DNA from: a bacterium
GTDB taxonomy: Bacteria > Cyanobacteriota > Vampirovibrionia > Gastranaerophilales > JBAXKC01
Assembly (NCBI GenBank): GCA_037137535.1
Contig: JBAXKC010000015.1
Span: 1 to 61,021, forward strand
DNA length: 61,021 nt
Direction: 5' to 3'
Shown one piece after another: positions 6,751 through 47,162 of the stretch. A program made the translations under genes and the position numbers. Each line of letters opens with the position of its first letter. Position 1 is the stretch's first letter. Under the pieces are notes generated by a model. The model made no database searches. It had not been told where the DNA came from and worked only from the letters and a program-made list of their open reading frames with translations.

Positions 6751-6805
6751 GTTTAAAGATAAAGGATGCTATAAAATACCTTTTGATAAACCTTGATAAA
6801 TTAGC

Positions 6806-6837: not shown

Positions 6838-6846
6838 TAAATATTA

Positions 6847-29317: not shown

Positions 29318-29917
29318 CTAGCCAAAGGTTTTGAATGTCATATCAATGTTTTTATCAATTACTTTTTTAACTGCGTCTATTTCTGTTTGAACTTCGGTGT
29401 GTTGTGTGTCTATGTTCTTAAGATCTAATTCAAGTCTTTTATCTTTTGACTGAAGTTCAGCTGTTAATGCTTCATATTTAGAACTAGCAGCTGCATCATC
29501 TTCTGTTTTTAATCTGTCTTGAATAGCACAATTAGGATCTGTTATCCAATCAACTTTTTTATCTTTATCATTTTCTGTTGGAGGGTTTTTATATTTTAAA
29601 TAAACAGTACTATTTCTAAGACTTGCTTCAAGCTTATCAGATGCAAGAGTCGCCGGAACAGTTGAATCATCTAATGCATAATAAGGAACTAAATTAACTG
29701 TTGCTAAGTTTGCAACTGTTAATGGGATTGAATTACCGTCCATATTTTTTATTTCAAGAATTCTATTATTTAATCCTTCATTGAAGGCTGTTGCTAATGC
29801 TTCCTGTTGATAAGAAAGCATTGTTCTTTCATTATTAACAATTTGCCCTCTATATTCAATATCACTCTTCCGTCCGGTGAGTGTAAGCATTCTGCCTTGA
29901 CTTGCTGCTAAACCCAT
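29318..29917 (-). CDS. 'MGLAASQGR' family coiled-coil orphan protein, paralog 1
   Basis: Conserved N- and C-terminal helices shared with the three copies at 44.9-47.1 kb; AAGGAG RBS. Confidence 0.85.
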   Translation of the reverse strand: MGLAASQGRMLTLTGRKSDIEYRGQIVNNERTMLSYQQEALATAFNEGLNNRILEIKNMDGNSIPLTVANLATVNLVPYYALDDSTVPATLASDKLEASLRNSTVYLKYKNPPTENDKDKKVDWITDPNCAIQDRLKTEDDAAASSKYEALTAELQSKDKRLELDLKNIDTQHTEVQTEIDAVKKVIDKNIDMTFKTFG

Positions 29918-29994
29918 AGCGTGTCTCCTTTGTCCTTATTAGATTCGATTCTTACCTACACCCAAAATTTACATCCATTCGATTTATATTTATG

Positions 29995-30022
29995 TTATCG
30001 ACCGTTTTATGTATTGACTTTA
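29995..30022 (-). promoter_or_regulatory. Sigma28 (FliA/SigD)-type promoter TAAA-N16-GTCGATAA
   Basis: Close to the TAAA-N15/16-GCCGATAA consensus; upstream of paralog 1. Confidence 0.75.
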
Positions 30023-30121
30023 ACTTTTAACCAGCTTTGTCAATTTAAATTTACAAAAATTAACAAATAAAACAAAATTTTTTTATTATGCTATTCACGA
30101 TACACTATAAAGGATTTGTAA

Positions 30122-31015
30122 ATGAATATACCGACAATGATGCCGCTAAAAGCCACACTTAATAAACCAGATTACAAAAAAGCAACACAAAGTTTAAAAG
30201 CAACCGAAGAAAATAAAACTCAAACTTTACCTTATTTCGCTTATAAATCTAATTTTTTATCTTTTAAAGGAAATGATGATAATATTCAATTAAGAAAAGA
30301 AGTTGATCAGCTTAAACAAGAATTAAACTTTTTAAGGTCTGAGTTTAATGAATTTAAAAATAAATTTGAACCGTCAAACAATAATGAAAAAACAGAAACA
30401 CCAAGAAAATCAAAATTTATTAGTACTAATGCTCAAATTGCATACGATGAAATAGTTACACCTATGATTGAAAATTCACTAACAAAGGATGAAGACAGAA
30501 ACACCTTAGAAAAATACAAAGAAAACGAAAAATTTTTAAAAATAGTACAATCGTATCCAAATATTAACAAATTTTTAAAAGAAATAAGAGAAAAAGAAAA
30601 AATGTCCCTTAATTTATTAAAGGCAAACTTAAGTTCCTTTATGATTTGGGAATTTATTCTTGCTAAACCTAGAGTTTTACTTGAATTAAATACAATCGGA
30701 ACTAAATATGAAAATGCCGATATCTATAAAGATATGAAAAAAGAAATGGAAAGAGATTATTATGGCAGATCTTCAAGATTTGGAGATGTTTCACTTTCCG
30801 AAGTATGGCTGAAAAAACTCGGAAACGATCCTTCTAAAATGTCAGACGAAGATAAAATAACACGTCTTATTAATACTTCAGGCGGTGAAAAGAAAATGCT
30901 AAAAGAAGAAACAATAAAAATAGCAAGGGAAACCCCTCTAGCCGTCAAAAAAATGGCTGAACTTATGGATACATGTTTTGATAATTATATAGAGACCTAC
31001 AAAATAAAAGATTAA
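30122..31015 (+). CDS. Orphan protein with an 'LSFKG' leader and a coiled coil
   Basis: 297 aa; disordered leader ending in SNFLSFKG. Confidence 0.75.
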   Translation: MNIPTMMPLKATLNKPDYKKATQSLKATEENKTQTLPYFAYKSNFLSFKGNDDNIQLRKEVDQLKQELNFLRSEFNEFKNKFEPSNNNEKTETPRKSKFISTNAQIAYDEIVTPMIENSLTKDEDRNTLEKYKENEKFLKIVQSYPNINKFLKEIREKEKMSLNLLKANLSSFMIWEFILAKPRVLLELNTIGTKYENADIYKDMKKEMERDYYGRSSRFGDVSLSEVWLKKLGNDPSKMSDEDKITRLINTSGGEKKMLKEETIKIARETPLAVKKMAELMDTCFDNYIETYKIKD

Positions 31016-31776
31016 CTATTTTTCCATTCTGGTTTTCTTTTCTCTATAAAACTACTTATTCCCTCTTTATAATCTTCTAATCCTAGAAGTTCTTCTAAAT
31101 AGGCTTTTTCAGCTTGTATTAATTTCTCTTTAAATTCATTTAAATGAATATTTTTAAAGGTTTTTAAAGTTAAAGAAAGAACACTTCTACTGTTTTTTGT
31201 TATTTTTTCAATAAAAGAATTAACTTCTTCATCAAAAGTATCTTCTTTGAAAATATGATTCACAAGCCCTGCTTCATAGGCCGTTTGTGCATTTATTTTA
31301 TCACCTGTAAATATGTATTCAATTGCTTTTTTATTTGAAGTCAAATAAGGAAGTAAAACCATTGAAACAGGAGGAAAACAACCTAAAGTTATTTCACTGT
31401 GACTAAAACTAGCCTGTTCTGACGCAATTACAAAATCGCTGAATAAAGCCAATTCAGCTCCACCACCGTAACAACCACCTTTTACTACTGATAATAAAGG
31501 TATTTGCAAATCAAGCAAGGTAAAAAACACTTTATGAAAAGCTATTATCATAGGTATTGTATTTTCTAAAGAATGGTCAGTAATACTGACACCTGCCGAA
31601 AAAGCTTTGCCTTCCGCCTTTAGAACCAAAAGTTTTAAATCCTTATCGTTTGATAAATCTTCAAACATTTTATTTAAATAATTCAAATCTTCTATATTTA
31701 AAATATTTAATGGCGGTTTATTTAATACAATAATGGCATAATTATCATTTTTTTTTACTTTTATAAAATTATTCAT
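31012..31776 (-). CDS. Enoyl-CoA hydratase/isomerase (cyclohexadienoyl-CoA hydratase Dch-like)
   Basis: PPLNILNI, FSAGVSI, GGGAEL, EITLGCFPP; ATG at 31776 coupled to the upstream stop. Confidence 0.8.
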   Translation of the reverse strand: MNNFIKVKKNDNYAIIVLNKPPLNILNIEDLNYLNKMFEDLSNDKDLKLLVLKAEGKAFSAGVSITDHSLENTIPMIIAFHKVFFTLLDLQIPLLSVVKGGCYGGGAELALFSDFVIASEQASFSHSEITLGCFPPVSMVLLPYLTSNKKAIEYIFTGDKINAQTAYEAGLVNHIFKEDTFDEEVNSFIEKITKNSRSVLSLTLKTFKNIHLNEFKEKLIQAEKAYLEELLGLEDYKEGISSFIEKRKPEWKNS

Positions 31777-32726
31777 AGTTTTGTTCCACATTTACCGCAA
31801 AATTCAAATTCTTCAGGAAGATATTTTGTCTGACATTCGCTACATTCTTTTAAATTAGCTCCCCATAGAGATTCTGAAGAAAGTCCACTTTTTGCACGTT
31901 CTCTCAATTTAATATAATCAGGTTTTCTTTTTTCAACAAAACCTTGCATTCCTTCATGTGTTTCATAGGAAGAAAAATGCACGCTTAACCAATCCCTTGC
32001 ATGACCTATTGTTTGATTCCATGCAAAATCTTTCCAGAAGTTTAATTGTTGCTTTGTATATCTTGTACATTCAGGAAATTTATTTAAAAGTTTTTCTACA
32101 ACTTCATCAACTTTTTCATCAAGTTCTTCCATAGGTACGACATAATTTATCAAGCCCCATTCTTTTGCCTGTTGAGCTGATATTGGCTCATTAAGCATAA
32201 GAATTTCTCTAGCTCTTCTATCTCCAACCATTAAAGGTAATATTTGAGTAGCTCCACCTGCGGCAACACTTCCTACGCTCGTTCCAACCTGCCTGATAGT
32301 TACATGTTCAGCTGCAATTGCAAAATCACAAGAAAGGTTTATCTCATTACCTCCACCTGTAACCATACCGTTTAATCTTGCAATGGTCGGTTTTCCACTA
32401 TTTCTTAAAAGATCATGAAACTGATTAAAAACACCCATCCACTTCCAGAAATCTCTTGGACGCTTTATAAACTCACCTGCGTATTCTTTTACATCTCCAC
32501 CTGTGCAAAAAGCCTTTTCACCTGCTCCTGTTATTACAATAACAGCTATACCATCATCCCAAACAGCGTCTTGAAGGGCTTTTATCATTTCTTTTAACGT
32601 TATTATGCTGTAAGCATTATAAACTTGAGGTCTATTTATTGTAATAGTAGCCTTCCAGCCTTTTTTATCATAAATTATTTCATTAAATTCAAAGTCTGAT
32701 GCTTTTTTAGCCTTAAAAAAATCCAT
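31773..32726 (-). CDS. Ring-opening crotonase (Oah/BadI/MenB subgroup) with a C-terminal zinc ribbon
   Basis: FCTGGDVKE, GGGNE, QVGTSVGSVAAGGATQ; CSEC ... FCGKCG. Confidence 0.8.
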   Translation of the reverse strand: MDFFKAKKASDFEFNEIIYDKKGWKATITINRPQVYNAYSIITLKEMIKALQDAVWDDGIAVIVITGAGEKAFCTGGDVKEYAGEFIKRPRDFWKWMGVFNQFHDLLRNSGKPTIARLNGMVTGGGNEINLSCDFAIAAEHVTIRQVGTSVGSVAAGGATQILPLMVGDRRAREILMLNEPISAQQAKEWGLINYVVPMEELDEKVDEVVEKLLNKFPECTRYTKQQLNFWKDFAWNQTIGHARDWLSVHFSSYETHEGMQGFVEKRKPDYIKLRERAKSGLSSESLWGANLKECSECQTKYLPEEFEFCGKCGTKL

Positions 32727-32990
32727 AAATTAAACCTCTTTTCGATTTTTCTAATTATACCAATATTAAAACTTATTTGATATTAGTTAATTTGTATCAC
32801 TAAAAACACCGTTATTATTAGCTTTATAACATTGGTTCAACTCAAAAAGGTCTATGGTGTAGACCATTGGATTTATTTTAAGGCTGTAAACCCTATGGTC
32901 GATGATTTAAGTTAGCTATTAATTTAATCTATTTATAGTATTGTGAACGAGTTTCATAATCAAAAATCATTATTTTAAAGGGGTAAGGGG

Positions 32991-34241
32991 ATGAATATTA
33001 ATAGAAGCAAGATACTTTTAGGGGTGGCAGTAGGGTTTATTTTTGGAACTCTTCCTGTGTTTGCTTATGAAGGAGCAATTCTTTCTGAAATAGAAATTAA
33101 TCCTTATAATGAATCAAATTATCAGTTTATTTTAAAAACCGATAAAAAAATACCTATTCAGAAAATTATATCCTCTGATAACAAGGTTATTCTTAAATTA
33201 AAACATACTAGACCTGCTAAATTTGTTAATACTGTCTATAATACTTCTTCTGTTGATAATATTATCATTCAACCTTCCTCAGATGATGAAGTTAAAATCT
33301 ACATTGAAGGAATGAATGCGGCTCAAAGTTATATTTCACTGGAAACAGCTGACAACGGATTAGACTTTATGCCTCCCGTACAGACAGCTGCTACTGATAC
33401 TCAACCCCCAATTGCAAAAGCGTCAGTAGTTAATACAAGCCAAAAGGCCGTTCCGACAAATACAAATATTAAAGCAGCGCCAACTTCAACACCTGTAAAC
33501 GTAGAACCTAAGAATTTAAATGAACAAATACCTGAAAATGTAGTACAAGTGAATAACAAACCTGACTTTAAACCAGCTATAGTCATGCCGGAAGCAACAA
33601 GTGAAGAAAAAAACAACATAAAACAAACAGAAGGCGGTTCTCACTTAGGATTATTAAAGAAAATTTTTGGTTCTTCGTTAATTGATAATATTATAAGAGG
33701 TTTAGCTCTTTTAGTCATTATGTTAGGAGCTTTCAAGTTCTTAAAACCAAGAGAAAAACAAGTTAAAATCAACCTTAACTCAAACCACAACATAAAAGAC
33801 AGAGAAGCTGACTTATTTAAACAACTAAACAACAGCAGAGGTTTAATAGGTTCAAGTTTAAAATCATCCTACGACAAGCAAACACCATTAAAAAGAAACA
33901 CATCTTCGGTTAATTACGGACTAAAAGAATATCAAAACAGTCAAGTTGCACCAAAATCAATGGGATTAAAATCACCTCCAAGATTTTCAGCAGAAGATAT
34001 AGGGTTCAAACCATCACTAAGTCATGACGTTTCTCTAGGATTAAACAGAACTAAAAAAGCCTCAATCAACACTCAAACAAGACAACCAGCCTCAAGAGTT
34101 ACGCAAAATGACATAAACTCGGCAAAAGTAAATATCGACAATGTAAAATTCTTAGAAACAATGGCAGGTATTTATGAAAAAAGTGGAAGAACTGATTTAG
34201 CTTCAGGAATCCAAAGCAGTTTAAGAAAAACAAACAGATAA
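32991..34241 (+). CDS. Envelope protein with an AMIN-like N-terminal domain and one TM helix
   Basis: Signal peptide (VFA-YE), beta-rich N-domain, P/T-rich linker, TM GLALLVIMLGAF. Confidence 0.65.
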   Translation: MNINRSKILLGVAVGFIFGTLPVFAYEGAILSEIEINPYNESNYQFILKTDKKIPIQKIISSDNKVILKLKHTRPAKFVNTVYNTSSVDNIIIQPSSDDEVKIYIEGMNAAQSYISLETADNGLDFMPPVQTAATDTQPPIAKASVVNTSQKAVPTNTNIKAAPTSTPVNVEPKNLNEQIPENVVQVNNKPDFKPAIVMPEATSEEKNNIKQTEGGSHLGLLKKIFGSSLIDNIIRGLALLVIMLGAFKFLKPREKQVKINLNSNHNIKDREADLFKQLNNSRGLIGSSLKSSYDKQTPLKRNTSSVNYGLKEYQNSQVAPKSMGLKSPPRFSAEDIGFKPSLSHDVSLGLNRTKKASINTQTRQPASRVTQNDINSAKVNIDNVKFLETMAGIYEKSGRTDLASGIQSSLRKTNR

Positions 34242-34297
34242 TAGATAACAAAAAAATCTCTCTTTTAAAAAGAGAGATTTTTTATTGTGATTTAATA

Positions 34298-34621
34298 TTA
34301 TTGTTTTTCTTTATGATTAAAGCTATTTTTTATCTTATTAAAAATACTTGGACCATAAGTAACAACTACACCTATTGCTAATCCCGAAGCAACAGAGCTT
34401 ATTATATTTCTTACCATTGAACCTTTTGTTAATTCCTTTAATTGTTCGGGAGTGAAAGAATCTTTCATTTTATTTCTTAAAGAACGTGAATTTAACTCAT
34501 AAGCTACAGCATTTACTTTAGCAGCTGTTAATCCTATAAGAACAGCTTTTTGTGGGGACGGCTTACTTTGAGTTTCAGGCTTTTTTATTAATTGTGTATC
34601 ACTTTTAAAACTTATATTCAT
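34298..34621 (-). CDS. Small orphan membrane protein with an 'MNISFKS' start
   Basis: AAGGAG RBS before ATG 34621 (the longer ORF start overlaps the promoter motif); two hydrophobic segments. Confidence 0.75.
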   Translation of the reverse strand: MNISFKSDTQLIKKPETQSKPSPQKAVLIGLTAAKVNAVAYELNSRSLRNKMKDSFTPEQLKELTKGSMVRNIISSVASGLAIGVVVTYGPSIFNKIKNSFNHKEKQ

Positions 34622-34652
34622 TGATTGGCTCCTTTGTTTTAGACTTTTTTTA

Positions 34653-34681
34653 TATAAAAACAAAAAGTTCTAAATAAATGA
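34653..34681 (-). promoter_or_regulatory. Orphan-gene promoter motif TCATTT-N14-GTTTTTATATA
   Basis: Same spacing as the other sites; weaker upstream box. Confidence 0.55.
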
Positions 34682-34785
34682 CAGTATAGTCTTAGATAAC
34701 CATACTGTCAATTTATATTAATAATAAAAACTAAAGAAGAATATCTGTTAGTTATATAGATTTTTGCCTAATTTAAAAATCTATA

Positions 34786-35415
34786 TTATTCTTTCGTTTC
34801 AAACTTATCTTGTAATTCTTTTCCATATTCAAAATATTTGGTAAAATCACTATTTTTAAAATCATCAAGATTTATTTGTTTACCCTCTTGTTCTTTCATT
34901 TCACAAAAACCTAAAACGGCTAACCCTTTTTTATTAGTAAAGTACATAGATGAATCATCAGTATCATAAGAACTTTTTTCATTTAAAGAATTATCAAATT
35001 TGTCAAAATCCTGAACATTAGTATTATAAATTTTACTTATTGCATAAGAAGTTACGTTACTTATTGCTTTAATACTCGCATTACAATCAGTAAGACATGT
35101 ACAATAAGCCTGTGTCGCCTCCATTGCTTTATTACTGAGTTCTATTGCCTTTAAACTTTCTCTTACTTGTTTTTCACCTTTAAATGATATTTTATTTAGT
35201 TCTATATTATGAATTGTGTTTACATCTTTATTTGATGATTTTAAATTTATATAATTAATTGAGAGGTTTCTTGTGGCTATTGATGTTTTTGAATCAATTA
35301 AACCATTATTACTTAATTGAGCTTTATTTTCAGTTTTATTATTTATTAAAACTTCTTTGCTTTTTACATTTTTTGTTAAAATATTAGTATTTGTATTTCG
35401 ATTAAGAGTTATCAT
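34786..35415 (-). CDS. Orphan leader-bearing protein A (MITLNR ... ISFKG)
   Basis: About 90-aa N-terminus and about 35-aa C-terminus nearly identical to 35469-36074. Confidence 0.8.
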   Translation of the reverse strand: MITLNRNTNTNILTKNVKSKEVLINNKTENKAQLSNNGLIDSKTSIATRNLSINYINLKSSNKDVNTIHNIELNKISFKGEKQVRESLKAIELSNKAMEATQAYCTCLTDCNASIKAISNVTSYAISKIYNTNVQDFDKFDNSLNEKSSYDTDDSSMYFTNKKGLAVLGFCEMKEQEGKQINLDDFKNSDFTKYFEYGKELQDKFETKE

Positions 35416-35468
35416 TTTTTATTCCATTATTCTATATTTACGCTATTTATTAACTTATTTATTTTTAA

Positions 35469-36074
35469 TTATTGTTTATTTTTAAATTTTTCTTTTAATT
35501 CTTTTCCATATTCATGATATTTTGAAAAATCACTATTTTTAAAATCATCCAAATTTATTTTTTTATCATCTTGTTCTTTCATTTCACAAAAACCTAAAAC
35601 AGCTAAAGCAGAAAACTCAACAAAAATTGGATCTAATAATAATAATGAATCTATCAAATTAGAAGAGAAACTACCTTCGGTATTATAAATTTTAGTTATT
35701 TTATTAAACAACTCACTAATTGTTTGATATTTGAGTGCAGGACCTAAACCTGGTGGTATCAAACTACTTTCACTCATTCGTGAATAAATTAAAGCCTTTT
35801 CTATTACCTTCAAACTTTCTCTTACTTGTTTTTCACCTTTAAATGATATTTTATTGGACTCTACATTATGAATTGTGTTTACATCTTTTTTTGACGACTT
35901 TAAATTAATATAATTAATTGAGAGGTTTCTTGCGGCTATTGATGTTTTTGAATCAATTAAACCATTATTACTTAATTGAGCTTTATTTTCAGTTTTATTA
36001 TTTATTAAAACTTCTTTGCTTTTTACGTTTTTTGTTAAAATATTAACATTTGTATTTCTATTAAGAGTAATCAT
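35469..36074 (-). CDS. Orphan leader-bearing protein B (MITLNR ... ISFKG)
   Basis: Tandem paralog of 34786-35415 with a divergent central region. Confidence 0.8.
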   Translation of the reverse strand: MITLNRNTNVNILTKNVKSKEVLINNKTENKAQLSNNGLIDSKTSIAARNLSINYINLKSSKKDVNTIHNVESNKISFKGEKQVRESLKVIEKALIYSRMSESSLIPPGLGPALKYQTISELFNKITKIYNTEGSFSSNLIDSLLLLDPIFVEFSALAVLGFCEMKEQDDKKINLDDFKNSDFSKYHEYGKELKEKFKNKQ

Positions 36075-36164
36075 TATGTTTCCTTTTTACACATATAGAT
36101 TATTTAAAAAGAATACTAGTAGATAAAAGTATAATAATATTCACTAGTAAAGTTTATAAATAAG

Positions 36165-36956
36165 TTATTTAGCGTTTTTTAAATCTTTTGGACCAAAAGA
36201 TTTAGGTAATAGATTTTTTAAGGTTTCAATTTGTAATGGAGTATCTGGAATTACAGTTCCTAAAATAATTTTAGCATTTTCTTCATTATTAAATTCTTCA
36301 ATAACTTGTCGACAAGCTCCACAAGGAGAAGCAGGTTCAGGTGCTTCTTTTACCACAATAGCTAAACCTGCTATTTGTACTGCACTACCATCTTTATTAT
36401 GCCCCTCATTTGCTACCATGTTAAATAAAGCCACTCTTTCAGCACAAACAGTAAGACCATAACTAGAATTTTCTACATTACAACCTTTGTAAATTTTTCC
36501 GTTCTCGCTTATTACAGCTGCACCAACATGATAATTAGAATAAGGCGCATAAGATTTATCAGTTTGTTTTATGGAAATATCAAATAGTAATCTAGCTACT
36601 TTATCATCTATCATATCAGGTGTTATTTTGCCTACTGTTTTTATTTTTTTATCAAGTATAGCTTGCAATTCTTTTTCAGGATTATAATTAACTTCAGGTT
36701 TTATAGCAGAATCAATTGTTGAAGAAACAGCAATTCCCTCTACAGCAGCAAGAAACTCTCTTCTTGTCATATTTTCGCCTGTAAATTTAACATTTGTTGA
36801 ATAGTAAGCTTGTAAATTAGGTAAATTAAATTTAGATAGATTATGTTTATCTATACTTTTTTTTATAATTAACGGACTTAATTCTTTTTTTTTAATATTT
36901 TCTAATAATTTTGTCTTATTATTTATCATGGAATTTCGCTCATTAATATTTATCAT
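36165..36956 (-). CDS. cdd: Cytidine deaminase with an N-terminal extension of about 120 aa
   Basis: SYAPYSNYHVGAA, GCNVEN, CAE and PCGACRQ (Cys-type CDA); leader contains NLQAYY..NVKFTG. Confidence 0.88.
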   Translation of the reverse strand: MININERNSMINNKTKLLENIKKKELSPLIIKKSIDKHNLSKFNLPNLQAYYSTNVKFTGENMTRREFLAAVEGIAVSSTIDSAIKPEVNYNPEKELQAILDKKIKTVGKITPDMIDDKVARLLFDISIKQTDKSYAPYSNYHVGAAVISENGKIYKGCNVENSSYGLTVCAERVALFNMVANEGHNKDGSAVQIAGLAIVVKEAPEPASPCGACRQVIEEFNNEENAKIILGTVIPDTPLQIETLKNLLPKSFGPKDLKNAK

Positions 36957-37050
36957 AAATCCTCTTTTTTAAATCATATTAACTTACTTAAATTAAAAGA
37001 CCCTAATTTAGAGCCTTTTAATGTTTATTAAAATATAAAATTAATATTTT

Positions 37051-37473: not shown

Positions 37474-37482
37474 TTTTTCTCC

Positions 37483-38398
37483 TTATTTCTTTTGTTTAGT
37501 TTTCCAATAATCAATAATGTAATCTTTATTAGCGTTTGCTTCTTTAGCATATTTTGATATTTCTTCTGGAGTCATTTGTTCTATATCAAGACCTCTTTCT
37601 TTTGTTATCTCCATCAATCCAGTAAAAATAACACCCAATGTAGTTGTCGTTCCATAAGCTACAGCTGCATTAGCTGCATTTCCAAAACCAGGGAACCAAG
37701 ATATAAATTTTACAGCAATTTGAGGACCAACAACAGATAAAACAGCTGGTCCAGAGACAGCGGTCATAACATTTTTAATATTTTTAATTCCATAAACTGC
37801 TGCAATTCCAGCACACATAGCACCTTGTATTGTAGTTACAGCTGCAGTATCAAGTACACCTGTTTGAGCTAAAGAACCAGCTGTTGCTGATGCTGATACA
37901 GCAGCTGCTTGACAAACAGCAAGTGATTTTAATAATCTTTCATTTCTCATATCTTCTCTTACACCTAAAAATGAAAGTTTTTCACTTTTATTCTGTTTTA
38001 CTGGAATCAAAGCAACATCTTTACCAACCTGCATTATCTCTTTTAAAGATGTAATTTCTTTTTCTTCTTCTTCTGTTGTTGCATTTTTTAATGATAAATC
38101 TAATGCTTTTATAGTATAATCAATTGAAGGAAGTAAATCTTTTGATTTTAAAATTTTTCCTTCAAACTCATGTTCAATAGACTGTCCTTCTTTAATAAAC
38201 TTCGTTTCATCTATTTGTTCTACCGAGGATTTAAAATTAATTTGATTAAGTTGTAAATTTCTAACAGCCATAGATGCTTTAGAATCAACTAAAGCACTTG
38301 ATGACAAACCAGCTTTATTTTCAATACTATTTAAAGCTATTGTTTGTTTGTTTGTTTGTTTCACGACTAAAAGTCAATCCTTTGTTAAGGGTAATCAT
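37483..38398 (-). pseudogene. Leader-bearing DUF697/YcjF-like membrane protein, frameshifted at an (AAAC)5 tract
   Basis: AGGAG RBS plus ATG 38398 gives MITLNKGLTFSRETNKQTNNSFK* (stop at 38327-38329); removing one AAAC fuses it to the 293-aa ORF; leader homologous to 34786/35469. Confidence 0.75.
38342..38361. repeat. Tetranucleotide SSR (GTTT)5, read as (AAAC)5 on the coding strand
   Basis: Directly visible; lies in the 5' coding region. Confidence 0.95.
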
Positions 38399-38420
38399 TT
38401 CTTTGCTCCTAATTACTTAA

Positions 38421-38452
38421 TATATATAAAACCAAAAGTTTCAAACAATTGA
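38421..38452 (-). promoter_or_regulatory. Orphan-gene promoter motif TCAATT-N13-GGTTTTATATATA
   Basis: Heads the 38398-34786 orphan array. Confidence 0.65.
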
Positions 38453-38523
38453 TAGTATAATCGGCTAATATTTTAGAGTCAAATAAAACATATTATTATA
38501 TTAAGTTTAATTTATATTATTAA

Positions 38524-39819: not shown

Positions 39820-39985
39820 AAATAACCCCCTTAAACTCTCATTGCTATATTTTGATTTTACAGGAAATTTTTATTTTTATAAACAAAAATAAATCACTTA
39901 TGCATAAAGTTTAAAAAGTAAATTAATGAATAGAAAAAATAAAAAAATCTGATAAATTTATCAGATTTTTTATAAATTTTAATTT

Positions 39986-40090
39986 TTAATAATTATCTTT
40001 TCGTATCGGTATAGGTTGTAAAAGATTTTGCCTGCCAGAATAACATCCTAATAAAAGAGTAGCCGTCGTTATAATTAAAACTGTTAGCAT
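39986..40090 (-). CDS. Small hydrophobic protein or lipopeptide MLTVLIITTATLLLGCYSGRQNLLQPIPIRKDNY (34 aa; not in the ORF track)
   Basis: TAATG coupling to the upstream gene, AAGGAG RBS, LLG-C lipobox-like motif, followed by a hairpin at 39941-39970. Confidence 0.55.
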   Translation of the reverse strand: MLTVLIITTATLLLGCYSGRQNLLQPIPIRKDNY

Positions 40091-40827
40091 TAAGTCTCTC
40101 CTTGTAAGTCGTTCATTGTTAAAATATTTTTCACATAAAAAACGTTGTCTTTTCTTATGACGTCTATTAACCTGTTTAGTTCATTTTTAACTTCGGTTGT
40201 CTTGTATTTTATAGTTAAAACACTAACTATTTCGGCAACTTTTTCCCTTATTTGATACTCCTTATTATTTATAAAAACATCACTTATGTTTATTAACTGT
40301 TTTAATGTTTCTTCAGTTAAAGTCAAATCCTCTCGCTTTATTATTTCTCTTATAGCTGATAAAGACCAGTATAGTTGAGTCATTGTTAAATCATTTAACT
40401 TACCGAACAATTCGTCTAATACAAATAGAGGATTATCAATATATTTTAATATATTAATCGTATTTCTGCAAACATTGGGAGTTGTGCCATTCAAGGTATC
40501 TATAAAAGCATTTAAGCTGTAAGTATCACTGAATAAATCAATAAACAAGGACTTTTTCAACAACTCACCAAGCAAATATGTTGATATATCTAAAACTCTA
40601 TTTCTTTTATAGGATATACATTTTTTTAAAAATAATAAATCTTCTTCTGTTTTTAATTCTTCTATTTTTAATAATTTAATTAATAATTCTTCTTCTGAGG
40701 GATTTTCTTTTAATTCAAAATAAATGCTATTATTTAGTAACAGGACAGAAGCATTAACCTTAACATCAATATCTTCTGATGCTAAATCATTTAGAATTAA
40801 ATCTGTTTTATTATCTAAATTATTCAT
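40090..40827 (-). CDS. HEAT/ARM-like helical repeat protein
   Basis: Leu-rich amphipathic repeats (EDIDVKVNAS, EYQIREKVAE, DNVFYVK). Confidence 0.65.
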   Translation of the reverse strand: MNNLDNKTDLILNDLASEDIDVKVNASVLLLNNSIYFELKENPSEEELLIKLLKIEELKTEEDLLFLKKCISYKRNRVLDISTYLLGELLKKSLFIDLFSDTYSLNAFIDTLNGTTPNVCRNTINILKYIDNPLFVLDELFGKLNDLTMTQLYWSLSAIREIIKREDLTLTEETLKQLINISDVFINNKEYQIREKVAEIVSVLTIKYKTTEVKNELNRLIDVIRKDNVFYVKNILTMNDLQGET

Positions 40828-40931
40828 TTTCTAATACTTTTGGGGGTATAATCACAACCAAAAAATCTCTAAAATTATATTACATTTATAATAATTATAT
40901 TATACAAACAAAATTATGAGGAGAATAAAAT

Positions 40932-41117
40932 ATGAAATCATGGGGTGTAGTGGATTTTTTCAAAGATCTGGTATTCCAACAAAATAGCGATTATGTGGGT
41001 CTTAGCCGATTAAAAAACACAGAAGAAAATACTCCCAAAATGCCATCAATACCAAAAAAGGCAAGAAAAGACGTAAAAATATCCGACCTTATGAAAGGCA
41101 ATATCTCTGATTATTAA
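40932..41117 (+). CDS. Small hypothetical protein (61 aa)
   Basis: GAGGAG RBS; followed by a bidirectional hairpin. Confidence 0.7.
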   Translation: MKSWGVVDFFKDLVFQQNSDYVGLSRLKNTEENTPKMPSIPKKARKDVKISDLMKGNISDY

Positions 41118-41154
41118 CAAAAATAAAGGAGTCAATTAAGACTCCTTTATTTTT

Positions 41155-42186
41155 TTATTGGTACATTTTCATTATAGTTTTAACATTTTTAAGCGTTTCA
41201 CTTGCTTTAAATCTGGCTTTCTCGCTGCCTTCTATAAGTAATTTATTTATATAATCAGGATTTTGTTCTAATTCCGCTCTTTTTTCTCTTACAGATCTAA
41301 ATTTATTATTAATAATAGTGGCTATTTCTCTTTTGCAATCAGCGCAACCTCTAATAGCATTTACACATTCATTCTTCATTCTTTCTTGAGTTTCTTTATC
41401 TGCGAAAATAGAATAATAAGGACAGATTACTTCACAGTCTTCAGGATGTCCTGGATCTGTTTTTCTAAGCCTTGATCTATCTGTAACAGCACTCATTATT
41501 TTTTTAGTTGTTACTTCTTCCGAATCAGCAATCTTTATATCGTTATTAAAAGATTTACCCATTTTTTGACCATCAACACCTTTAATAAGAGGTGTTTCAG
41601 TTAATCGTGGATGTGGCTCGTTAAAATAATCTGTTTTATAAAGATAATTAAATCTTCTTGTTATATCCCTTGTTAATTCAAGGTGAGCAATCTGATCATG
41701 CCCAACAGGAACCAGCGAAGCATTAAAAGTAATTATATCAGCTGTCATTAAAACAGGGTAACCTAATAATCCATAATTAAGTAAACCTGATATATTTTGT
41801 TGTCCTTCATTATCTTCATGATCTTTTCTTAAGATTTTAACCATGTCTTTTAAAGTAGGATCTCTTTCTACCCAATTTTGAGGGGTTATCATACTTAAGT
41901 AAAGATGAATTTCAGCTGTTTCAGGTACTAAAGACTGTATATAAACAGTTGATTGCTCTGGATTTATCCCGCTTGCAATCCAATCGAGAGCTACATTAAC
42001 TATATTTTCTTTTAAATCTTCTGTTTTGTCATATTTAGTTGTTAAAGCATGCCAGTCTGCAATTGAGAAGAAACATTCATATTCATTTTGAAAATCTATC
42101 CAGTTTCTAAGTACTCCCATATAATGTCCTAAATGAAGTTTTCCTGTAGGACGCATTCCCGACATTATACGTTTTTTATCGCTCAT
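41155..42186 (-). CDS. trpS: Tryptophan--tRNA ligase
   Basis: SGMRPTGKLHLGH, YPVLMTADI, VPVGHDQ, KMGKS. Confidence 0.96.
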   Translation of the reverse strand: MSDKKRIMSGMRPTGKLHLGHYMGVLRNWIDFQNEYECFFSIADWHALTTKYDKTEDLKENIVNVALDWIASGINPEQSTVYIQSLVPETAEIHLYLSMITPQNWVERDPTLKDMVKILRKDHEDNEGQQNISGLLNYGLLGYPVLMTADIITFNASLVPVGHDQIAHLELTRDITRRFNYLYKTDYFNEPHPRLTETPLIKGVDGQKMGKSFNNDIKIADSEEVTTKKIMSAVTDRSRLRKTDPGHPEDCEVICPYYSIFADKETQERMKNECVNAIRGCADCKREIATIINNKFRSVREKRAELEQNPDYINKLLIEGSEKARFKASETLKNVKTIMKMYQ

Positions 42187-42397
42187 TACAAAAGCTCCTT
42201 TAACTAAATTTTATTCTATATAAAATCTATTCTAATTAAAAAATAAAACATAATCTTCTATTGATGATTTTTAATATTAACTTTAATTAAGTATTTTAGT
42301 TCATATTTTAATTATTATTAAAAAACTTAACAATTAAAATTCAGCTAAAATAGACGTGTTTTGTAGAGATTAGATAAATACAGCAAGAAATTGTTTA

Positions 42398-42427
42398 GCA
42401 ATTTTTATTATAATTTTGTTTTTTATA
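42398..42427 (+). promoter_or_regulatory. Orphan-gene promoter motif GCAATT-N14-GTTTTTTATA
   Basis: About 155 nt upstream of ORF 42584; one extra T. Confidence 0.5.
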
Positions 42428-42583
42428 AGTAAGTAGATAAAATTAATAATAGGGGTTTTTATTTACTGTTTTTAAAGAGGTTATGTTTAATTACAACCGT
42501 TTTAATTTAATAAATCGGCCGGCTTATTGAAATAAAATTGTTAGGTTGTAAAATGGGAAGATTATTATAGGATATGGGTGTAA

Positions 42584-42949
42584 ATGAATAGCTTTAATTT
42601 TAATACTAATTTCAAAGCCTATAAAAGTTGTGAGAGTTCTTTAGATTACGCTTTAGATGTTTTCTGTACTTCAAAAACAGGAAGTGTATTTGATTGCGTG
42701 GCTCCATTAAAACATTCAACAGCAAACTCTGCAACTTCAAGAAAACTTAAAAACATGTTTCGAGCTATAGATCAAAAAATAACTTTATTTGACGTAGCAA
42801 CAAGTCAAAATAGTTGTTCTTCTGATGTTACAAATAAGGCAACAGACCTTTTAATGGAACTTAGAGAAACTAATGATCCATATAGAAAACAAGAAGTTAT
42901 GGATAAAGTTGACAACTTTTTTGAAAATGTAAAAAAAGGTAATCTTTAA
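42584..42949 (+). CDS. Orphan protein with a 'TNFKA' leader
   Basis: 121 aa; begins MNSFNFNTNFKA. Confidence 0.7.
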   Translation: MNSFNFNTNFKAYKSCESSLDYALDVFCTSKTGSVFDCVAPLKHSTANSATSRKLKNMFRAIDQKITLFDVATSQNSCSSDVTNKATDLLMELRETNDPYRKQEVMDKVDNFFENVKKGNL

Positions 42950-42987
42950 ACAATAAAAAACTGCTTAAACAAATAAGCAGTTTTTTA

Positions 42988-43311
42988 TTACTTTATTTTC
43001 TTTATCGAAGAATAACTTGAATGTATTTTACTAAGAAGTAATGTTTTAGAAGCATCTACTGTAAAAACACCACAAATTATTATAAGAGCTGTTATTATCC
43101 AACTTAATAACAAACTCGTCCAAAAATTATCCTTTTTTTTAAAAGAATATCCACATTTACAACTATCATTTGAAGTTAAATTCTTTCTATTGCAATTAGG
43201 ACATTTAAAATCAAGAATAATCCCATTTTGCTCAAAATAATAACCATCCATAAAAGATTTAACATATATAACATTTTCACAAGAATAATAATTCTTATTA
43301 TTTTTTATCAT
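42988..43311 (-). CDS. Zinc-ribbon membrane protein
   Basis: CPNC ... CKCG followed by one TM helix; start uncertain. Confidence 0.6.
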   Translation of the reverse strand: MIKNNKNYYSCENVIYVKSFMDGYYFEQNGIILDFKCPNCNRKNLTSNDSCKCGYSFKKKDNFWTSLLLSWIITALIIICGVFTVDASKTLLLSKIHSSYSSIKKIK

Positions 43312-43547
43312 TTTAATGCCTAAAAATTCCCCAACTGCTAGAAATATAAAACACTATATTGTGTTCTATATCATCCATACGTTTAATAAAAAAATTCCTA
43401 TTGGGCTAAATTGTAGCTATTTAATTTCAAATACGCTTTTTTATAAATTAAAGATAAATATTATAACAGTAGACTTTTTTGCAATGAAAAAACATATTTT
43501 AAAATCTATATTATTAATAATGAGAGCTATTTTATGAGGTATGAATA

Positions 43548-43763
43548 ATGTTTAATGATTATTCTGCAATAGAAAAAAATATTGATAATATTGATAAAAA
43601 AACAAAAAAAAGAAATGAAGCAGGAAGGTCATTAAACAGATATATTGATCAGCTTAAATTTCATTTTGAATTAACCGATAACGATGTATTAAGTGTTTTA
43701 AATTTAATAATAAAAAACAGAAAAGAAAACTCCAGTAAAAAATGGTGGCAGTTATGGAAATAA
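43548..43763 (+). CDS. Small hypothetical protein
   Basis: GAGGT RBS; ends in KKWWQLWK. Confidence 0.6.
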   Translation: MFNDYSAIEKNIDNIDKKTKKRNEAGRSLNRYIDQLKFHFELTDNDVLSVLNLIIKNRKENSSKKWWQLWK

Positions 43764-43819
43764 AAAGGTAATATAATAAAAGAATTACTGTTTTTATATT
43801 CTATTAAATAGGGGAAAAA

Positions 43820-44422
43820 ATGGCAGAAAAAATTAATGTAGAACTTGATCAAAAATTCATTCAAAATTTATTTGGATTAGCTGACCTTAATCCTCCTTCA
43901 GAAATAAATAGCGATAATTTAAATAATGCAATAAGTATTATAAAAACAAAATTCAATAACTTAGCTCTTTCTTCAGGAGGAATGGGTGGAGTAAAAACCC
44001 CTAGTACGGAAACAGTCAAAAATGCATATATGGCTAATGAACCCTCTAATGTTGTCAGACCTAAGTCTATTCTTATTGTCGATGATCTTGGAATTATAAC
44101 TTATCAACTTGAAGTTATGTTTAAAAAACTGGGATTTGATGTTTGTATCTCTCAAGAAATTTATGATGCAATAGATAAATTCAAAAAACAGGATTTTGGT
44201 TATGCAATCATAGATTTGTTTATACCTACAGAACGTGAAGGCTTTATATTACTGGATGAACTAAAAAAATTAACTTTATTATGCAAGTTAAACACCAAAA
44301 TAATAGTAATGACTGCCTCCTCCAAATCAGAATATCAAACAAAATGCACAAACAGAGGAGCGGATGTTTACGTTGAAAAAGCTCCGGGATGGCAGAAAAA
44401 ACTTGTGGAAGTATGTCAATAA
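43820..44422 (+). CDS. Response regulator (C-terminal receiver domain with an N-terminal extension)
   Basis: ILIVDD, IIDLFIP, IIVMTA, GADVYVEK. Confidence 0.85.
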   Translation: MAEKINVELDQKFIQNLFGLADLNPPSEINSDNLNNAISIIKTKFNNLALSSGGMGGVKTPSTETVKNAYMANEPSNVVRPKSILIVDDLGIITYQLEVMFKKLGFDVCISQEIYDAIDKFKKQDFGYAIIDLFIPTEREGFILLDELKKLTLLCKLNTKIIVMTASSKSEYQTKCTNRGADVYVEKAPGWQKKLVEVCQ

Positions 44423-44434
44423 AAAGGTTTTAAG

Positions 44435-44653
44435 ATGCAATTAAATAATAAAAAATGTCCCTTTAAATTAGAAAAATGTTCCAACGAATGTTCGTTATAC
44501 ATAGATCCTGAAGAACTAAATGAAACTGTAAAAAACAAACTGGCAAGTTTAGGTGTAATAGACAGGAAATCAGGTATTTGTTCATTTAAAAATATGGCTC
44601 TTGCTATGAGTCGAACTATATTTGAAAACAATCATAACTCTTCTTGCCGCTAA
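44435..44653 (+). CDS. Small Cys-rich (putative Zn-binding) protein
   Basis: CPF...C..ECSLY ... CSF. Confidence 0.7.
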   Translation: MQLNNKKCPFKLEKCSNECSLYIDPEELNETVKNKLASLGVIDRKSGICSFKNMALAMSRTIFENNHNSSCR

Positions 44654-44787
44654 AAATATATACAATTAATCTTTAAAAAACCGATAAGTATATACTATTA
44701 AAGTATTATATTATCGGTTTTTTTTGCTATTTAAACATAAAAACCTTAAATCAACTAACTATAAGGACTTTGTAAAGCTTTGTTACG

Positions 44788-44832
44788 AATATATACTAAT
44801 TACGCAATTAGTATATATTGAATGTTTTTATA
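44788..44832 (+). promoter_or_regulatory. Orphan-gene promoter motif GCAATT-N14-GTTTTTATA overlapped by a perfect 14-bp inverted repeat
   Basis: AATATATACTAATT-acgc-AATTAGTATATATT (44788-44819); motif at 44804-44832; duplicated at 46418-46462. Confidence 0.75.
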
Positions 44833-44881
44833 TATATGTAAGGTAAATGTGAATTTAATAAAAAGCATAAGGAGATATATT

Positions 44882-45466
44882 ATGGGTTTAGCTGCTAGTC
44901 AAGGTAGAATGCTTACTCTTACTTCAAGAAAAAGTGACCTAGAATACAGAGCTCAAATTATCAGTAACAGAAGAATTATGCTTTCTATGCAAACCAGTGA
45001 ATTATCAAGACAATACTCAGAAGCTTTAAATAACAGAATTATGAAAGTTAAAACTGATGGACAAGAATTACCTCTTTCTGTTGCTAACTTAACTTTAGTT
45101 AATATGAAAGCTGTTTACGCTGATGGTTCTGCTGTTCCCGATAAAACAGCTTCTAATGTTCTTGAAGAAGGTTTAAGAAATGGCGTCATATCTATGCAAT
45201 ACATTAACAAACCTGCTGATGCTGAAACAAATAATGTTGACTGGAAAACTTCTACTCTTATTAACGATAATCTAAACACAGCTGATGATGCGGCTGCTAA
45301 CGGTAAATATGAATACCTTAGCGCTCAACTTCAAGCTCAAGACAAACAAATGGAACTTGAATTGAAAAACGTTGAAACTATGCACAAAGCTGTTGAAACT
45401 GAAACTGAATCTGTTAAAAAGGTTGTTGATAAAAACATCGAAATGACATTCAAAGCTTTCTCTTAA
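44882..45466 (+). CDS. 'MGLAASQGR' family protein, paralog 2a
   Basis: AAGGAG RBS before ATG 44882; 194 aa. Confidence 0.88.
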   Translation: MGLAASQGRMLTLTSRKSDLEYRAQIISNRRIMLSMQTSELSRQYSEALNNRIMKVKTDGQELPLSVANLTLVNMKAVYADGSAVPDKTASNVLEEGLRNGVISMQYINKPADAETNNVDWKTSTLINDNLNTADDAAANGKYEYLSAQLQAQDKQMELELKNVETMHKAVETETESVKKVVDKNIEMTFKAFS

Positions 45467-45502
45467 TTTATTAATTTTTCACATTTTCTTACTTTTTATT
45501 TT

Positions 45503-45534
45503 AAGACTCTTCTTTTGAAGAGTCTTTTTTTTTT
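45503..45534 (+). terminator. Rho-independent terminator
   Basis: AAGACTCTTC-tttt-GAAGAGTCTT followed by a T-tract; duplicated at 47133-47162. Confidence 0.85.
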
Positions 45535-45577
45535 GTTACATTTTTGTAAAGAAAGATATAAAATAATTATTTATCCT

Positions 45578-45605
45578 TAAAGTTTATAGATCAATTAGTC
45601 GATAT
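45578..45605 (+). promoter_or_regulatory. Sigma28 (FliA/SigD)-type promoter TAAAGTTT-N12-GTCGATAT
   Basis: Near-consensus sigma28 promoter upstream of paralog 3. Confidence 0.8.
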
Positions 45606-45682
45606 AAGTAAAATAAAATTAAATAAATGAAGATTAAAAAAATTCTACTATTTTTTAATCTTCACTTAAAAGGAGAAGCGCT

Positions 45683-46267
45683 ATGGGTTTAGCTGCTAGC
45701 CAAGGGAGAATGCTTACCCTTGATGGAAGAAAAAGTGACTTAGAGTATAGAGCTCAAACAATAAGTAATAGAAGAATTATGATTTCTATGCAAACCGGTG
45801 AATTGGCAAGAAATTATTCTGAAGCTTTAAATAATAGAATTATGAAAGTTAAGACTGACGGACAAGAATTACCTTTGTCAATTGCTAATTTAACCTTAGT
45901 TAATATGAAACCTGTTTATGCTGACGGCTCAGCAGTCCCTGACAAAACTGCTTCTGATGTTTTAGAAGAAGGTTTAAGAAATGGTGTCATAACTATGCAA
46001 TACATTAATAAACCCGCTGATGCTAAAACAAACGAAGTTGACTGGAAAACTTCTACTCTAATAAGTGATAACCTAAATACTGCTGATGACGCAGCTGCTA
46101 ACGGTAAATACGAATACCTTAGCGCAGAGTTCCAAGCAAAAGACAAACAAATGGAACTTGAGCTGAAAAACGTTGAAACTATGCACAAAGCTGTTGAAAC
46201 GGAAATGGAATCCGTTAAAAAAGTTGTCGATAAAAACATTGAAATGACATTCAAAGCTTTTTCATAA
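45683..46267 (+). CDS. 'MGLAASQGR' family protein, paralog 3
   Basis: About 90% identical to paralog 2 at protein level; AAGGAG RBS. Confidence 0.88.
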   Translation: MGLAASQGRMLTLDGRKSDLEYRAQTISNRRIMISMQTGELARNYSEALNNRIMKVKTDGQELPLSIANLTLVNMKPVYADGSAVPDKTASDVLEEGLRNGVITMQYINKPADAKTNEVDWKTSTLISDNLNTADDAAANGKYEYLSAEFQAKDKQMELELKNVETMHKAVETEMESVKKVVDKNIEMTFKAFS

Positions 46268-47162
46268 CTCTTCTTGCCGCTAAAAATATATACAATTAAT
46301 CTTTAAAAAACCGATAAGTATATACTATTAAAGTATTATATTATCGGTTTTTTTTGCTATTTAAACATAAAAACCTTAAATCAACTAACTATAAGGACTT
46401 TGTAAAGCTTTGTTACGAATATATACTAATTACGCAATTAGTATATATTGAATGTTTTTATATATATGTAAGGTAAATGTGAATTTAATAAAAAGCATAA
46501 GGAGATATATTATGGGTTTAGCTGCTAGTCAAGGTAGAATGCTTACTCTTACTTCAAGAAAAAGTGACCTAGAATACAGAGCTCAAATTATCAGTAACAG
46601 AAGAATTATGCTTTCTATGCAAACCAGTGAATTATCAAGACAATACTCAGAAGCTTTAAATAACAGAATTATGAAAGTTAAAACTGATGGACAAGAATTA
46701 CCTCTTTCTGTTGCTAACTTAACTTTAGTTAATATGAAAGCTGTTTACGCTGATGGTTCTGCTGTTCCCGATAAAACAGCTTCTAATGTTCTTGAAGAAG
46801 GTTTAAGAAATGGCGTCATATCTATGCAATACATTAACAAACCTGCTGATGCTGAAACAAATAATGTTGACTGGAAAACTTCTACTCTTATTAACGATAA
46901 TCTAAACACAGCTGATGATGCGGCTGCTAACGGTAAATATGAATACCTTAGCGCTCAACTTCAAGCTCAAGACAAACAAATGGAACTTGAATTGAAAAAC
47001 GTTGAAACTATGCACAAAGCTGTTGAAACTGAAACTGAATCTGTTAAAAAGGTTGTTGATAAAAACATCGAAATGACATTCAAAGCTTTCTCTTAATTTA
47101 TTAATTTTTCACATTTTCTTACTTTTTATTTTAAGACTCTTCTTTTGAAGAGTCTTTTTTTT
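46262..47162 (+). repeat. About 900-bp direct repeat, copy 2
   Basis: Begins at TCATAA, overlapping the stop codon of paralog 3. Confidence 0.93.
46512..47096 (+). CDS. 'MGLAASQGR' family protein, paralog 2b (identical to 2a)
   Basis: Identical translation to 44882-45466. Confidence 0.88.
   Translation: MGLAASQGRMLTLTSRKSDLEYRAQIISNRRIMLSMQTSELSRQYSEALNNRIMKVKTDGQELPLSVANLTLVNMKAVYADGSAVPDKTASNVLEEGLRNGVISMQYINKPADAETNNVDWKTSTLINDNLNTADDAAANGKYEYLSAQLQAQDKQMELELKNVETMHKAVETETESVKKVVDKNIEMTFKAFS

Follow-up and report, generated by a model that had tools for sequence, protein, structure and literature searches.

The stretch of DNA analysed here, 61,021 nucleotides from a Vampirovibrionia genome (contig JBAXKC010000015.1, hereafter the window), contains four genes of a protein family that we call MGLAASQ after its conserved start, and that is large and undescribed as far as our searches reach. 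We tentatively favour the view that a type III export apparatus of flagellar type secretes the members of this family as late substrates under sigma-28 control, with a conserved helical hairpin that would serve export and assembly and a variable insert that would be exposed. The strongest support comes from the enrichment of sigma-28-type promoters upstream of the family genes and from the retention of FliA, export gate and rod, together with the family, in all 48 genomes of a lineage devoid of flagellin. As we picture it, most family genes would be transcribed by FliA (sigma-28), and the determinants of export and assembly would reside in the hairpin, while the insert would be presented at the cell exterior on a polymer or on free, secreted protein. 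Flagellated species, such as the one that contains the window, would export the family alongside flagellin; in the flagellin-less gut lineage, which has kept only the export gate, the MS ring, the proximal rod and FliA, it would be the main cargo. Passage through the type III gate, an extracellular location and polymerisation are the parts of this scheme that we infer, whereas the layout of the fold, the link to sigma-28-type promoters, the distribution among genomes and the want of homology to flagellin come from the analysis itself.

The four genes were established from the list of open reading frames (ORFs) and by alignment. One lies on the reverse strand (29318-29917, 199 aa) and three on the forward strand, namely gene A (44882-45466), gene B (45683-46267) and gene A' (46512-47096), each coding for 194 aa. 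A' encodes the same protein as A, B has 86% DNA identity to A, and the 29318 protein is 56% identical to the other three. The four-way alignment has 95 invariant columns, concentrated within ~50 residues of the N-terminus and ~60 residues of the C-terminus, and the conserved termini around a more variable middle that an earlier note on this DNA had described are thus present. For A and A' the ORF lister begins at an upstream ATG, at 44822 and 46452, respectively; a good ribosome-binding site accompanies the conserved MGLAASQ start, which lies at 44882 in A and at 46512 in A'. Sites of the AAGGAGA type could be read directly at all four genes and no hydrophobic N-terminal signal is seen in any of the four proteins (by inspection only), both as the earlier note had it.

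Two of the four genes are preceded by a sigma-28-type promoter-like site, TAAAGTCAATACATAAAACGGTCGATA for the 29318 gene (30022-29996, reverse strand) and TAAAGTTTATAGATCAATTAGTCGATA for gene B (45578-45604, forward strand). They share the form TAAA-N16-GTCGATA, unusual in its 16-nt spacer and GTCGATA box, and the distance from the end of the site to the ATG is 78 nt in each case. A strict scan with TAAA-N15/16-G[CT]CGATA (the regulon consensus tested being TAAA-N15/16-GCCGATAA) returned 32 sites in the 2.95-Mb genome that contains the window, referred to below as G000, versus 8-17 in five shuffles. Strict sites are found 53-78 nt upstream of three of the eight family genes of G000 (29318, 45683 and a hairpin gene on contig 9), two of these being among the four in the window. 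The predicted sigma-28 sites of the window, which had been pointed out as near-consensus promoters from the letters alone, are more than a chance occurrence.

The association extends to other genomes. Of 98 family genes at 78 loci, 24 have a sigma-28-like site in the 150 nt upstream when a strict pattern is applied and 32 with a loose one, while the corresponding figures for the other genes of the same loci are 3 and 5 of 727. A complete flagellin-less genome of 1.9 Mb (G153) has 11 family genes as located by an N-terminal DNA pattern (0 in the reversed control); the copy number is the count of genes found in this way, profile matches being alignment stretches and not genes. In ten of the 11, TAAAG and a CG box separated by ~15 nt lie 50-85 nt upstream; five of these conform to a strict pattern, three to a loose one, and two, identical copies with GTCGTCA, were recognised by eye only. 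The eleventh gene, which heads an operon, has a TATAAT-like box instead. A strict scan of this genome for GCCGATA/GTCGATA was barely above the control (8 vs 4) and matched only one family gene, the boxes of this lineage being variants such as GCCGTA and ACCGATA. The sigma-28 link of the family, a matter of consensus matches and predicted promoters, is real and conserved in homologues, one of the points on which the earlier note had beforehand staked its proposal.

The second line of support is the distribution of the family, for which 201 genomes of the class were searched for the family, flagellin, FlhA and FliA. G000 is positive for all four and is left aside in the counts by lineage that follow. 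The family is present in 100 of the 201 genomes, all of which have FlhA (100/100) and nearly all FliA (99/100; TIGR02479 above its curated cut-off, as is the match in G000). Lineages f3, f6 and f12 have all four throughout (2/2, 19/19 and 5/5 genomes, respectively), as does f10 (25/25) apart from one genome where FliA was not found (24/25). The flagellin-less lineage f2, which belongs to the order Gastranaerophilales, has the family, FlhA and FliA in 48/48 genomes and flagellin in 0/48. The flagellated family f5 presents the converse, with flagellin in 30/30, FlhA in 29/30 and FliA in 28/30 genomes and the MGLAASQ family in 0/30. Family and flagellin can thus each be present without the other, and of the two genes against which the earlier note had proposed to profile the family, fliC does not track it, while fliA is present almost wherever it is. 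Of the remaining lineages, f7 (family and flagellin 0/9, FlhA 9/9, FliA 7/9) and f8 (family and flagellin 0/12, FlhA and FliA 12/12) have only the gate and, apart from two f7 genomes, FliA, the single genome of f11 has flagellin, FlhA and FliA (1/1 each) and no family gene (0/1), f4 has neither family nor flagellin nor FliA (0/47 each) and FlhA in 1/47, and f9 has none of the four (0/2 each). The family is thus nested within genomes that possess a type III export gate and FliA. FliS was not found in five of five flagellin-less f2 genomes searched, all of which bear the family, and therefore cannot be its general chaperone.

The export genes themselves fall into two sets. FlhA scores form two groups, one of ~850-897 bits in flagellated lineages and one of ~706-750 bits; f2, f7 and f8 have only the latter type, and both occur in f5 and in G000 (878.9 and 706.3 bits). 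The second set of G000 is found on contig 13 (60-10372, locus L115) and consists of two FlgF/G-like proteins, FlgB, FlgC, an SLT transglycosylase, FliE, FliF, a 313-aa protein to which no family could be assigned, FliH, FlhA and a FliI-type ATPase. The equivalent cluster of f2 reads FliE-FliF-(unassigned)-FliH-FlhA; of rod-type proteins, four of the five f2 genomes searched have two and the fifth has one. Four additional ORFs of G000 (contigs 2, 34, 27 and 60; 467-599 aa) match the C-terminal half of FlhA only. In f2, a family operon is located ~8-10 kb from FliE-FlhA, a linkage that we rejected as evidence because the f2 genomes are close kin and because family and FlhA are unlinked in G000.

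A partial flagellar gene set has been described for this order before. According to two genome papers, most Gastranaerophilales retain part of the flagellar gene set (PMC3787301, PMC4040986), with only a subset in six of nine genomes (PMC4040986), and the genome MEL.A1 is described as having no filament, cap, hook-filament junction or L/P rings (PMC3787301). A 2026 preprint (10.64898/2026.04.24.720558) gives a complete set for ~25%, the rest keeping flhB, fliI, flgG and others, 'postulated' for secretion. The gene set of f2 matches the MEL.A1 description (PMC3787301). With respect to this remnant, it is possible, though we regard it as doubtful, that the family takes over the function of flagellin without being homologous to it, as a new class of sigma-28-controlled type III cargo that polymerises on, or is released from, a flagellum-derived apparatus of rod and export gate only.

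For the 199-aa protein, AlphaFold 2 (AF2; 65-row alignment) returned a model with a mean predicted local distance difference test score (pLDDT) of 93.8, which consists of a helix (3-49), a small alpha/beta insert (52-136) and a second helix (141-198). The two terminal helices are confidently predicted to pair as a long antiparallel hairpin with a domain inserted at its far tip, which gives structural form to the conserved helical termini and variable centre noted earlier. A 421-aa relative from the flagellin-less lineage is modelled with the same hairpin and a beta-rich insert of ~310 aa (pLDDT 76.9), and short members of 95-119 aa correspond to the bare hairpin.

Fold searches with the 199-aa model, which the earlier note had proposed to compare with flagellin D0/D1, FliD, FlgL and EspA, returned only generic antiparallel hairpins. 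None of the Foldseek matches in the PDB reached E 0.001, the top match being IpaD (E 0.08, template modelling (TM) score 0.21). The VIA-wide comparison gave hairpins with Z 10-12.3, including CT398 (12.3), HP0958 (11.7), the IpaB coiled coil (11.7), a TelA-LXG complex (10.8), FliJ (10.1) and EsxAB (9.9), and further Rad50, SMC, moesin, PspA and chemoreceptor signalling domains, all below the noise level of Z ~13 that is stated for helical models in this method. The larger 421-aa model fared somewhat differently, as its ten best Foldseek matches in the PDB are all flagellar axial proteins, led by the hook protein FlgE (7cbm_DA; E 6.1e-4, prob 0.44) and followed by flagellins and junction proteins. 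In the ESM Atlas, flagellin clusters are the nearest among named families (score 0.75, a lead only), and one family cluster of 663 aa has GLUG repeats. These matches between models and structures are an agreement in layout and not evidence of common descent. For the short 109-aa paralogue, modelled as a tetramer from a 42-row alignment and without controls, complex prediction scored 0.10 against a mark of 0.42, which speaks neither for nor against self-association.

At the sequence level, none of the four window proteins has a match above the cut-off in Pfam or NCBIfam. A word-indexed search yielded 344 relatives, and a full profile search 3,877 clusters at 50% identity with E <=0.001, of which 3,000 have E <=1e-10. 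All reliably labelled records belong to the Vampirovibrionia (Melainabacteria), among them Vampirovibrio chlorellavorus NCIMB 11383. Typical family genes also occur in bins labelled Gammaproteobacteria, Muribaculaceae or Oculatellaceae (L038, L049, L062, L069, L074, L084, L086, L091, L093, L094, L099, L104, L106 and L110), labels that are probably wrong. At either end, conservation starts with the outermost residue, and the variation in length, from 95 to more than 600 aa, is confined entirely to the middle, where a comparison of 24 long members with Pfam found no domain. Cysteine accounts for 0.38% of the residues versus 1.01% in the background, and Cys is absent from 127 of 249 members and from 121 of 1,261 ORFs of 150-450 aa taken as background; the family is enriched in Gln, Thr, Asp and Ala and depleted in His, Pro, Phe and Ile. 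By its composition it resembles exported axial proteins, although coiled coils in general share part of this bias. A literature search, which did not cover supplementary gene tables, found no publication describing the family.

Several results weigh against the reading as late export cargo. No kinship to axial proteins could be detected: hmmscan of the four proteins with E up to 1 gave no match to Flagellin_N, Flagellin_C, Flg_bb_rod (PF00460) or Flg_bbr_C (PF06429), although the same Pfam library does detect Flg_bb_rod and Flg_bbr_C motifs in FlgF, FlgG and FlgK of the window; hhalign of the family alignment with the six flagellins and FlgL of G000 gave a probability of 0.1%; and a sequence search of the PDB produced nothing below E 0.1 (the best match, influenza haemagglutinin HA2 at E 0.1, we judge to be chance). 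The axial matches of the 421-aa model have TM scores of only 0.13-0.20 and root-mean-square deviations of 18-36 A; in VIA-wide and in a second look with VIA, the hairpin alone aligns, in the latter to flagellin helices (Z 7-9.3 over ~100-115 residues), and these matches are outscored by unrelated coiled-coil hairpins (SMC, moesin, PspA, chemoreceptors; Z 10-12), all of them under the noise level for helical models. The N-terminus is modelled as helical from residue 3, unlike the disordered N-termini of classical substrates. About two thirds of the 98 family genes have no sigma-28 motif, including the closest relatives of the 29318 gene (L036-L044), and at the 78 loci no export-apparatus gene is a consistent neighbour and no secretion genes are found.

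The phyletic pattern has its own exceptions, as the family is missing from four lineages with FlhA and FliA (f5 0/30, f7 0/9, f8 0/12, f11 0/1), where five genomes gave no family match even at E <=1, so that neither export system has it as an obligatory component. Moreover, the genomes are related, and the pattern therefore represents a handful of clades and not 200 independent observations. Finally, the flagellin-less lineage is without L/P ring genes according to PMC3787301, and the route across the outer membrane is therefore unexplained. The main weaknesses are the lack of homology or of a specific fold match, the lineages with gate and FliA that do without the family, the lack of a known outer-membrane route, and export being inferred. 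As to the filament, needle-extension or sheath subunit that the earlier note had put forward, no result of the analysis demonstrates it.

Of several alternative explanations, the most serious is that the family supplies the sigma-28 regulon with coiled-coil proteins that stay in the cytoplasm or near the membrane (adaptors, regulators, or scaffolds of gate or motor) and are not exported, the hairpin docking and the insert sensing or binding. We consider this rather unlikely, although it agrees with the best structural neighbours (CT398, HP0958, FliJ, chemoreceptor signalling domains and PspA are intracellular hairpins), with the lack of a signal peptide and with the helical N-terminus, and could find its partners in the four FlhA-C-only ORFs of G000; sigma-28 regulons elsewhere also include cytoplasmic chemotaxis and motor proteins. 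However, those hairpin matches are generic and under the noise level, and a 1.9-Mb genome with some 11 paralogues, whose hypervariable inserts have lengths between 0 and more than 500 aa, agrees more with surface-type diversifying selection than with an adaptor in a housekeeping role. A composition with little Cys, His and Pro and much Gln and Thr, and the GLUG repeats in some inserts, also speak against proteins that remain inside the cell.

That the proteins are exported or surface-located by another route (vesicles, lysis, a type VII-like or an unknown system), with sigma-28 reflecting mere co-regulation, appears quite improbable. The short members and the operon with two hairpins and a Gly-rich protein recall WXG100/LXG sets, with EsxAB at Z 9.9 and TelA-LXG at Z 10.8, and several FlhA-bearing lineages lack the family; yet the family occurs only in FlhA genomes (100/100), no other secretion genes are conserved beside its genes, Pfam gives no match to WXG100 or LXG, and these organisms have two membranes, according to PMC3787301. 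Divergent true flagellins or hook-associated proteins, drifted beyond recognition, are very unlikely, since the shared order of elements, with paired terminal helices and a variable domain at the far end, the ten axial Foldseek matches of the 421-aa model and the nearest named Atlas clusters are opposed by the hhalign result, the empty Pfam search at E <=1, a single helix pair without the D0/D1 subdivision and the uncoupling of the family from both flagellin and FliS.

If the family is late type III cargo, as we favour, its kind is not new, a late cargo with flagellin-like layout being already known; the novelty would lie in the scaffold, which is non-homologous, and in the fact that a flagellar apparatus in reduced form uses it. 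Like flagellin (FliC; PF00669, PF00700), the family has conserved terminal helices that pair around a hypervariable insert, many paralogues per genome, sigma-28-type promoters, no signal peptide and little Cys. Unlike flagellin, to which it has no sequence or profile similarity, it has one long hairpin instead of D0 plus D1 and members of only 95 aa, and it occurs in the absence of flagellin and of FliS and is missing from some flagellated lineages. The injectisome proteins of needle, filament and tip (SctF/PrgI, EspA, IpaD/SipD) are likewise small helix-loop-helix hairpins, in IpaD with an inserted domain, which leave the cell through a type III gate and form polymers on a rod-like base, and the flagellin-less lineage, with a rod and without hook or filament genes, offers a comparable setting. 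The family differs from them in having no Pfam match, with IpaD as top Foldseek match only at E 0.08 and TM 0.21, and in its host apparatus, which is of flagellar type (FliE, FliF, FliH, FlhA, FlgB, FlgC), and in its predicted sigma-28 regulation.

The closest parallel for the apparatus is the flagellar remnant of MEL.A1, where gate, MS ring and rod are kept and filament, cap, junction proteins and L/P rings are missing (PMC3787301). No cargo is named for flagellar-remnant systems in the literature searched, and the family is a candidate cargo, not a known component. The gate partners CT398/CdsZ, HP0958/FlgZ and FliJ give the best hairpin superpositions (Z 10.1-12.3) and belong to a type III export context; unlike the family they are single-copy and without a tip insert, and their scores are within the helical noise. 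A further difference is that CT398 and HP0958 carry a zinc ribbon.

Genome papers have noted since 2013 that most gut Gastranaerophilales have a partial flagellar set that is unable to build a flagellum. The MGLAASQ family is a concrete candidate cargo for this remnant, being an unannotated family with flagellar late-type promoters that is present in all 48 such genomes sampled. If the bolder and more doubtful reading as a flagellin replacement were true, the 'degenerate flagellum' would be a working secretion organelle with an identified cargo, and the roughly dozen paralogues with variable heads would give the flagellin-less gut species a surface or secreted repertoire directed toward the host or other microbes. 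Our favoured interpretation, if correct, would be an independent case of a flagellar export machine being repurposed for non-flagellar cargo, in a lineage sister to the photosynthetic cyanobacteria, and would introduce a new hairpin scaffold on which variable domains are displayed. Should it prove wrong, a defined member of a sigma-28 regulon is left, whose 3,877 clusters at 50% identity merit a family entry. As V. chlorellavorus, which has been grown in co-culture, has a member of 109 aa (locus L085), the hypothesis is testable at the bench.

Genes A and A' are under a promoter of a different type, for which a novel GCAATT motif had been proposed. The element is indeed present, as the palindrome TATATACTAATTACGCAATTAGTATATA at 44790-44817 and 46420-46447 (forward strand), which aligns with the spacer and -10 region of the sigma-28 promoter of gene B. 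The sequence CAATTAGT is common to the A and B promoters and is followed by CGATA in B and by ATATA in A, and the TAAAG of B is absent from A. By this alignment, the promoter of A and A' reads as a diverged sigma-28 promoter in which neither sigma-28 box survives and a TATA-rich -10 box resembling that of sigma-70 has arisen, and at these genes GCAATT is therefore not clearly a separate novel motif. Elsewhere in the window the 13-mer around GCAATT has no close counterpart (28 matches at <=3 mismatches vs 27 expected); GCAATT itself is mildly over-represented within 150 nt upstream of window genes (9 of 60 vs ~3.7 expected). The two promoter types are real, and the earlier suggestion of near-identical variants under two sigma programmes is probably correct.

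Genes A and A' are identical at the DNA level and lie within a perfect 901-bp direct repeat that flanks gene B. Sequence comparison places copy 1, with promoter, gene A and a terminator-like hairpin, at 44632-45532 and copy 2, including the palindrome at 46420-46447, at 46262-47162 (both forward). The repeat could be a recent duplication, the result of gene conversion, or an effect of the assembly, which is of the metagenome type and comprises 81 contigs. The terminator-like hairpin downstream of gene A (AAGACTCTTC/GAAGAGTCTT followed by a T run; 45503-45535, forward) was identified by reading only.

Further upstream, additional elements were noticed: TTTGTTAATTTTTGTAAAT at 30049-30067 (reverse strand, by eye), which resembles the GTTAMCA...TGTWAMCA of homologues; CTTTGTAAAGCTTTGTTACG at 44768-44787 (forward, by reading), where TTGTAA is also a possible sigma-70 -35 box, 16 nt before TATACT; and TTGTTACATTTTTGTAAAG at 45533-45551 (forward). 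At many family promoters, in the flagellin-less lineage (L135-L145) and in the window, the pattern GTTAMCA-N4-5-TGTWAMCA is seen by eye ~30 nt upstream of the -35 box, and may represent a regulator site or an UP-like element. G000 also has near-perfect sigma-28 sites (TAAAGTTTT...TGCCGATA) at C4:50434, 50595 and 50756, C1:105794, C4:111169, C22:34963 and C9:31778, and no ORF of >=45 aa was found within 350 nt downstream of these seven. Three of them on contig 4 are spaced 161 nt apart. Such ORF-less sites may drive small RNAs or very small proteins.

The genome G000 is of low GC content (~30%) and consists of 2.95 Mb in 81 contigs, and its relatives are labelled Gastranaerophilales or Melainabacteria, i.e. 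class Vampirovibrionia. The window contains at ~12.5-27 kb a late or outer flagellar block (SLT, FlgF, FlgG, FlgA, FlgH, FlgI, a rod-binding protein, FlgN, FlgK, FlgL, FliS, FlaG). Between flgL and fliS, the usual place of fliD, there are two ORFs of 622 and 629 aa (21174-23042 and 23174-25063, reverse strand), without Pfam match. Six canonical flagellins are encoded on other contigs, and the MGLAASQ family is therefore not 'the' flagellin of this organism.

Apart from the four members in the window, the eight of G000 comprise bare hairpins of 109, 119 and 95 aa and one divergent 106-aa form. There is a conserved operon, headed by one hairpin gene, which continues with a Gly-rich protein of ~270-300 aa, one or two small proteins and a divergent hairpin; the Gly-rich protein has hydrophobic stretches and a family-like C-terminal helix. 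This operon recurs in lineage f2 and at 13 of the 78 loci of other genomes, and the partners p299, p79 and p94 have no Pfam match. Neighbours of family genes at these loci are mostly housekeeping genes, together with tetratricopeptide repeat (TPR) proteins and asparaginase II. Ahead of the family genes there is a small Cys-rich ORF, of 72 aa in the window (44435-44653), which a related genome has in the same place (L036:391-618) and which is a conserved neighbour. In L036, an 837-aa protein (4327-6840) encoded 3' of two family genes has a sub-threshold match to NolX (E 9.2e-6, 25.5 bits vs a cut-off of 26.1), a type III translocon-associated family.

Two further observations concern other genes of the window. 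The adjacent paralogues at 34786-35415 and 35469-36074 (209 and 201 aa) are nearly identical in their N-terminal ~95 aa and then diverge. The motif [ILV][SN]FK[GS] occurs within the first 100 residues of 30 proteins of G000 and is ~6x commoner there than further along. Five of the 30 are encoded on the window contig, none of them with a Pfam family (30122-31015, 34298-34663, 34786-35415, 35469-36074 and 37483-38364), and by its position the motif could be a sorting or export tag.

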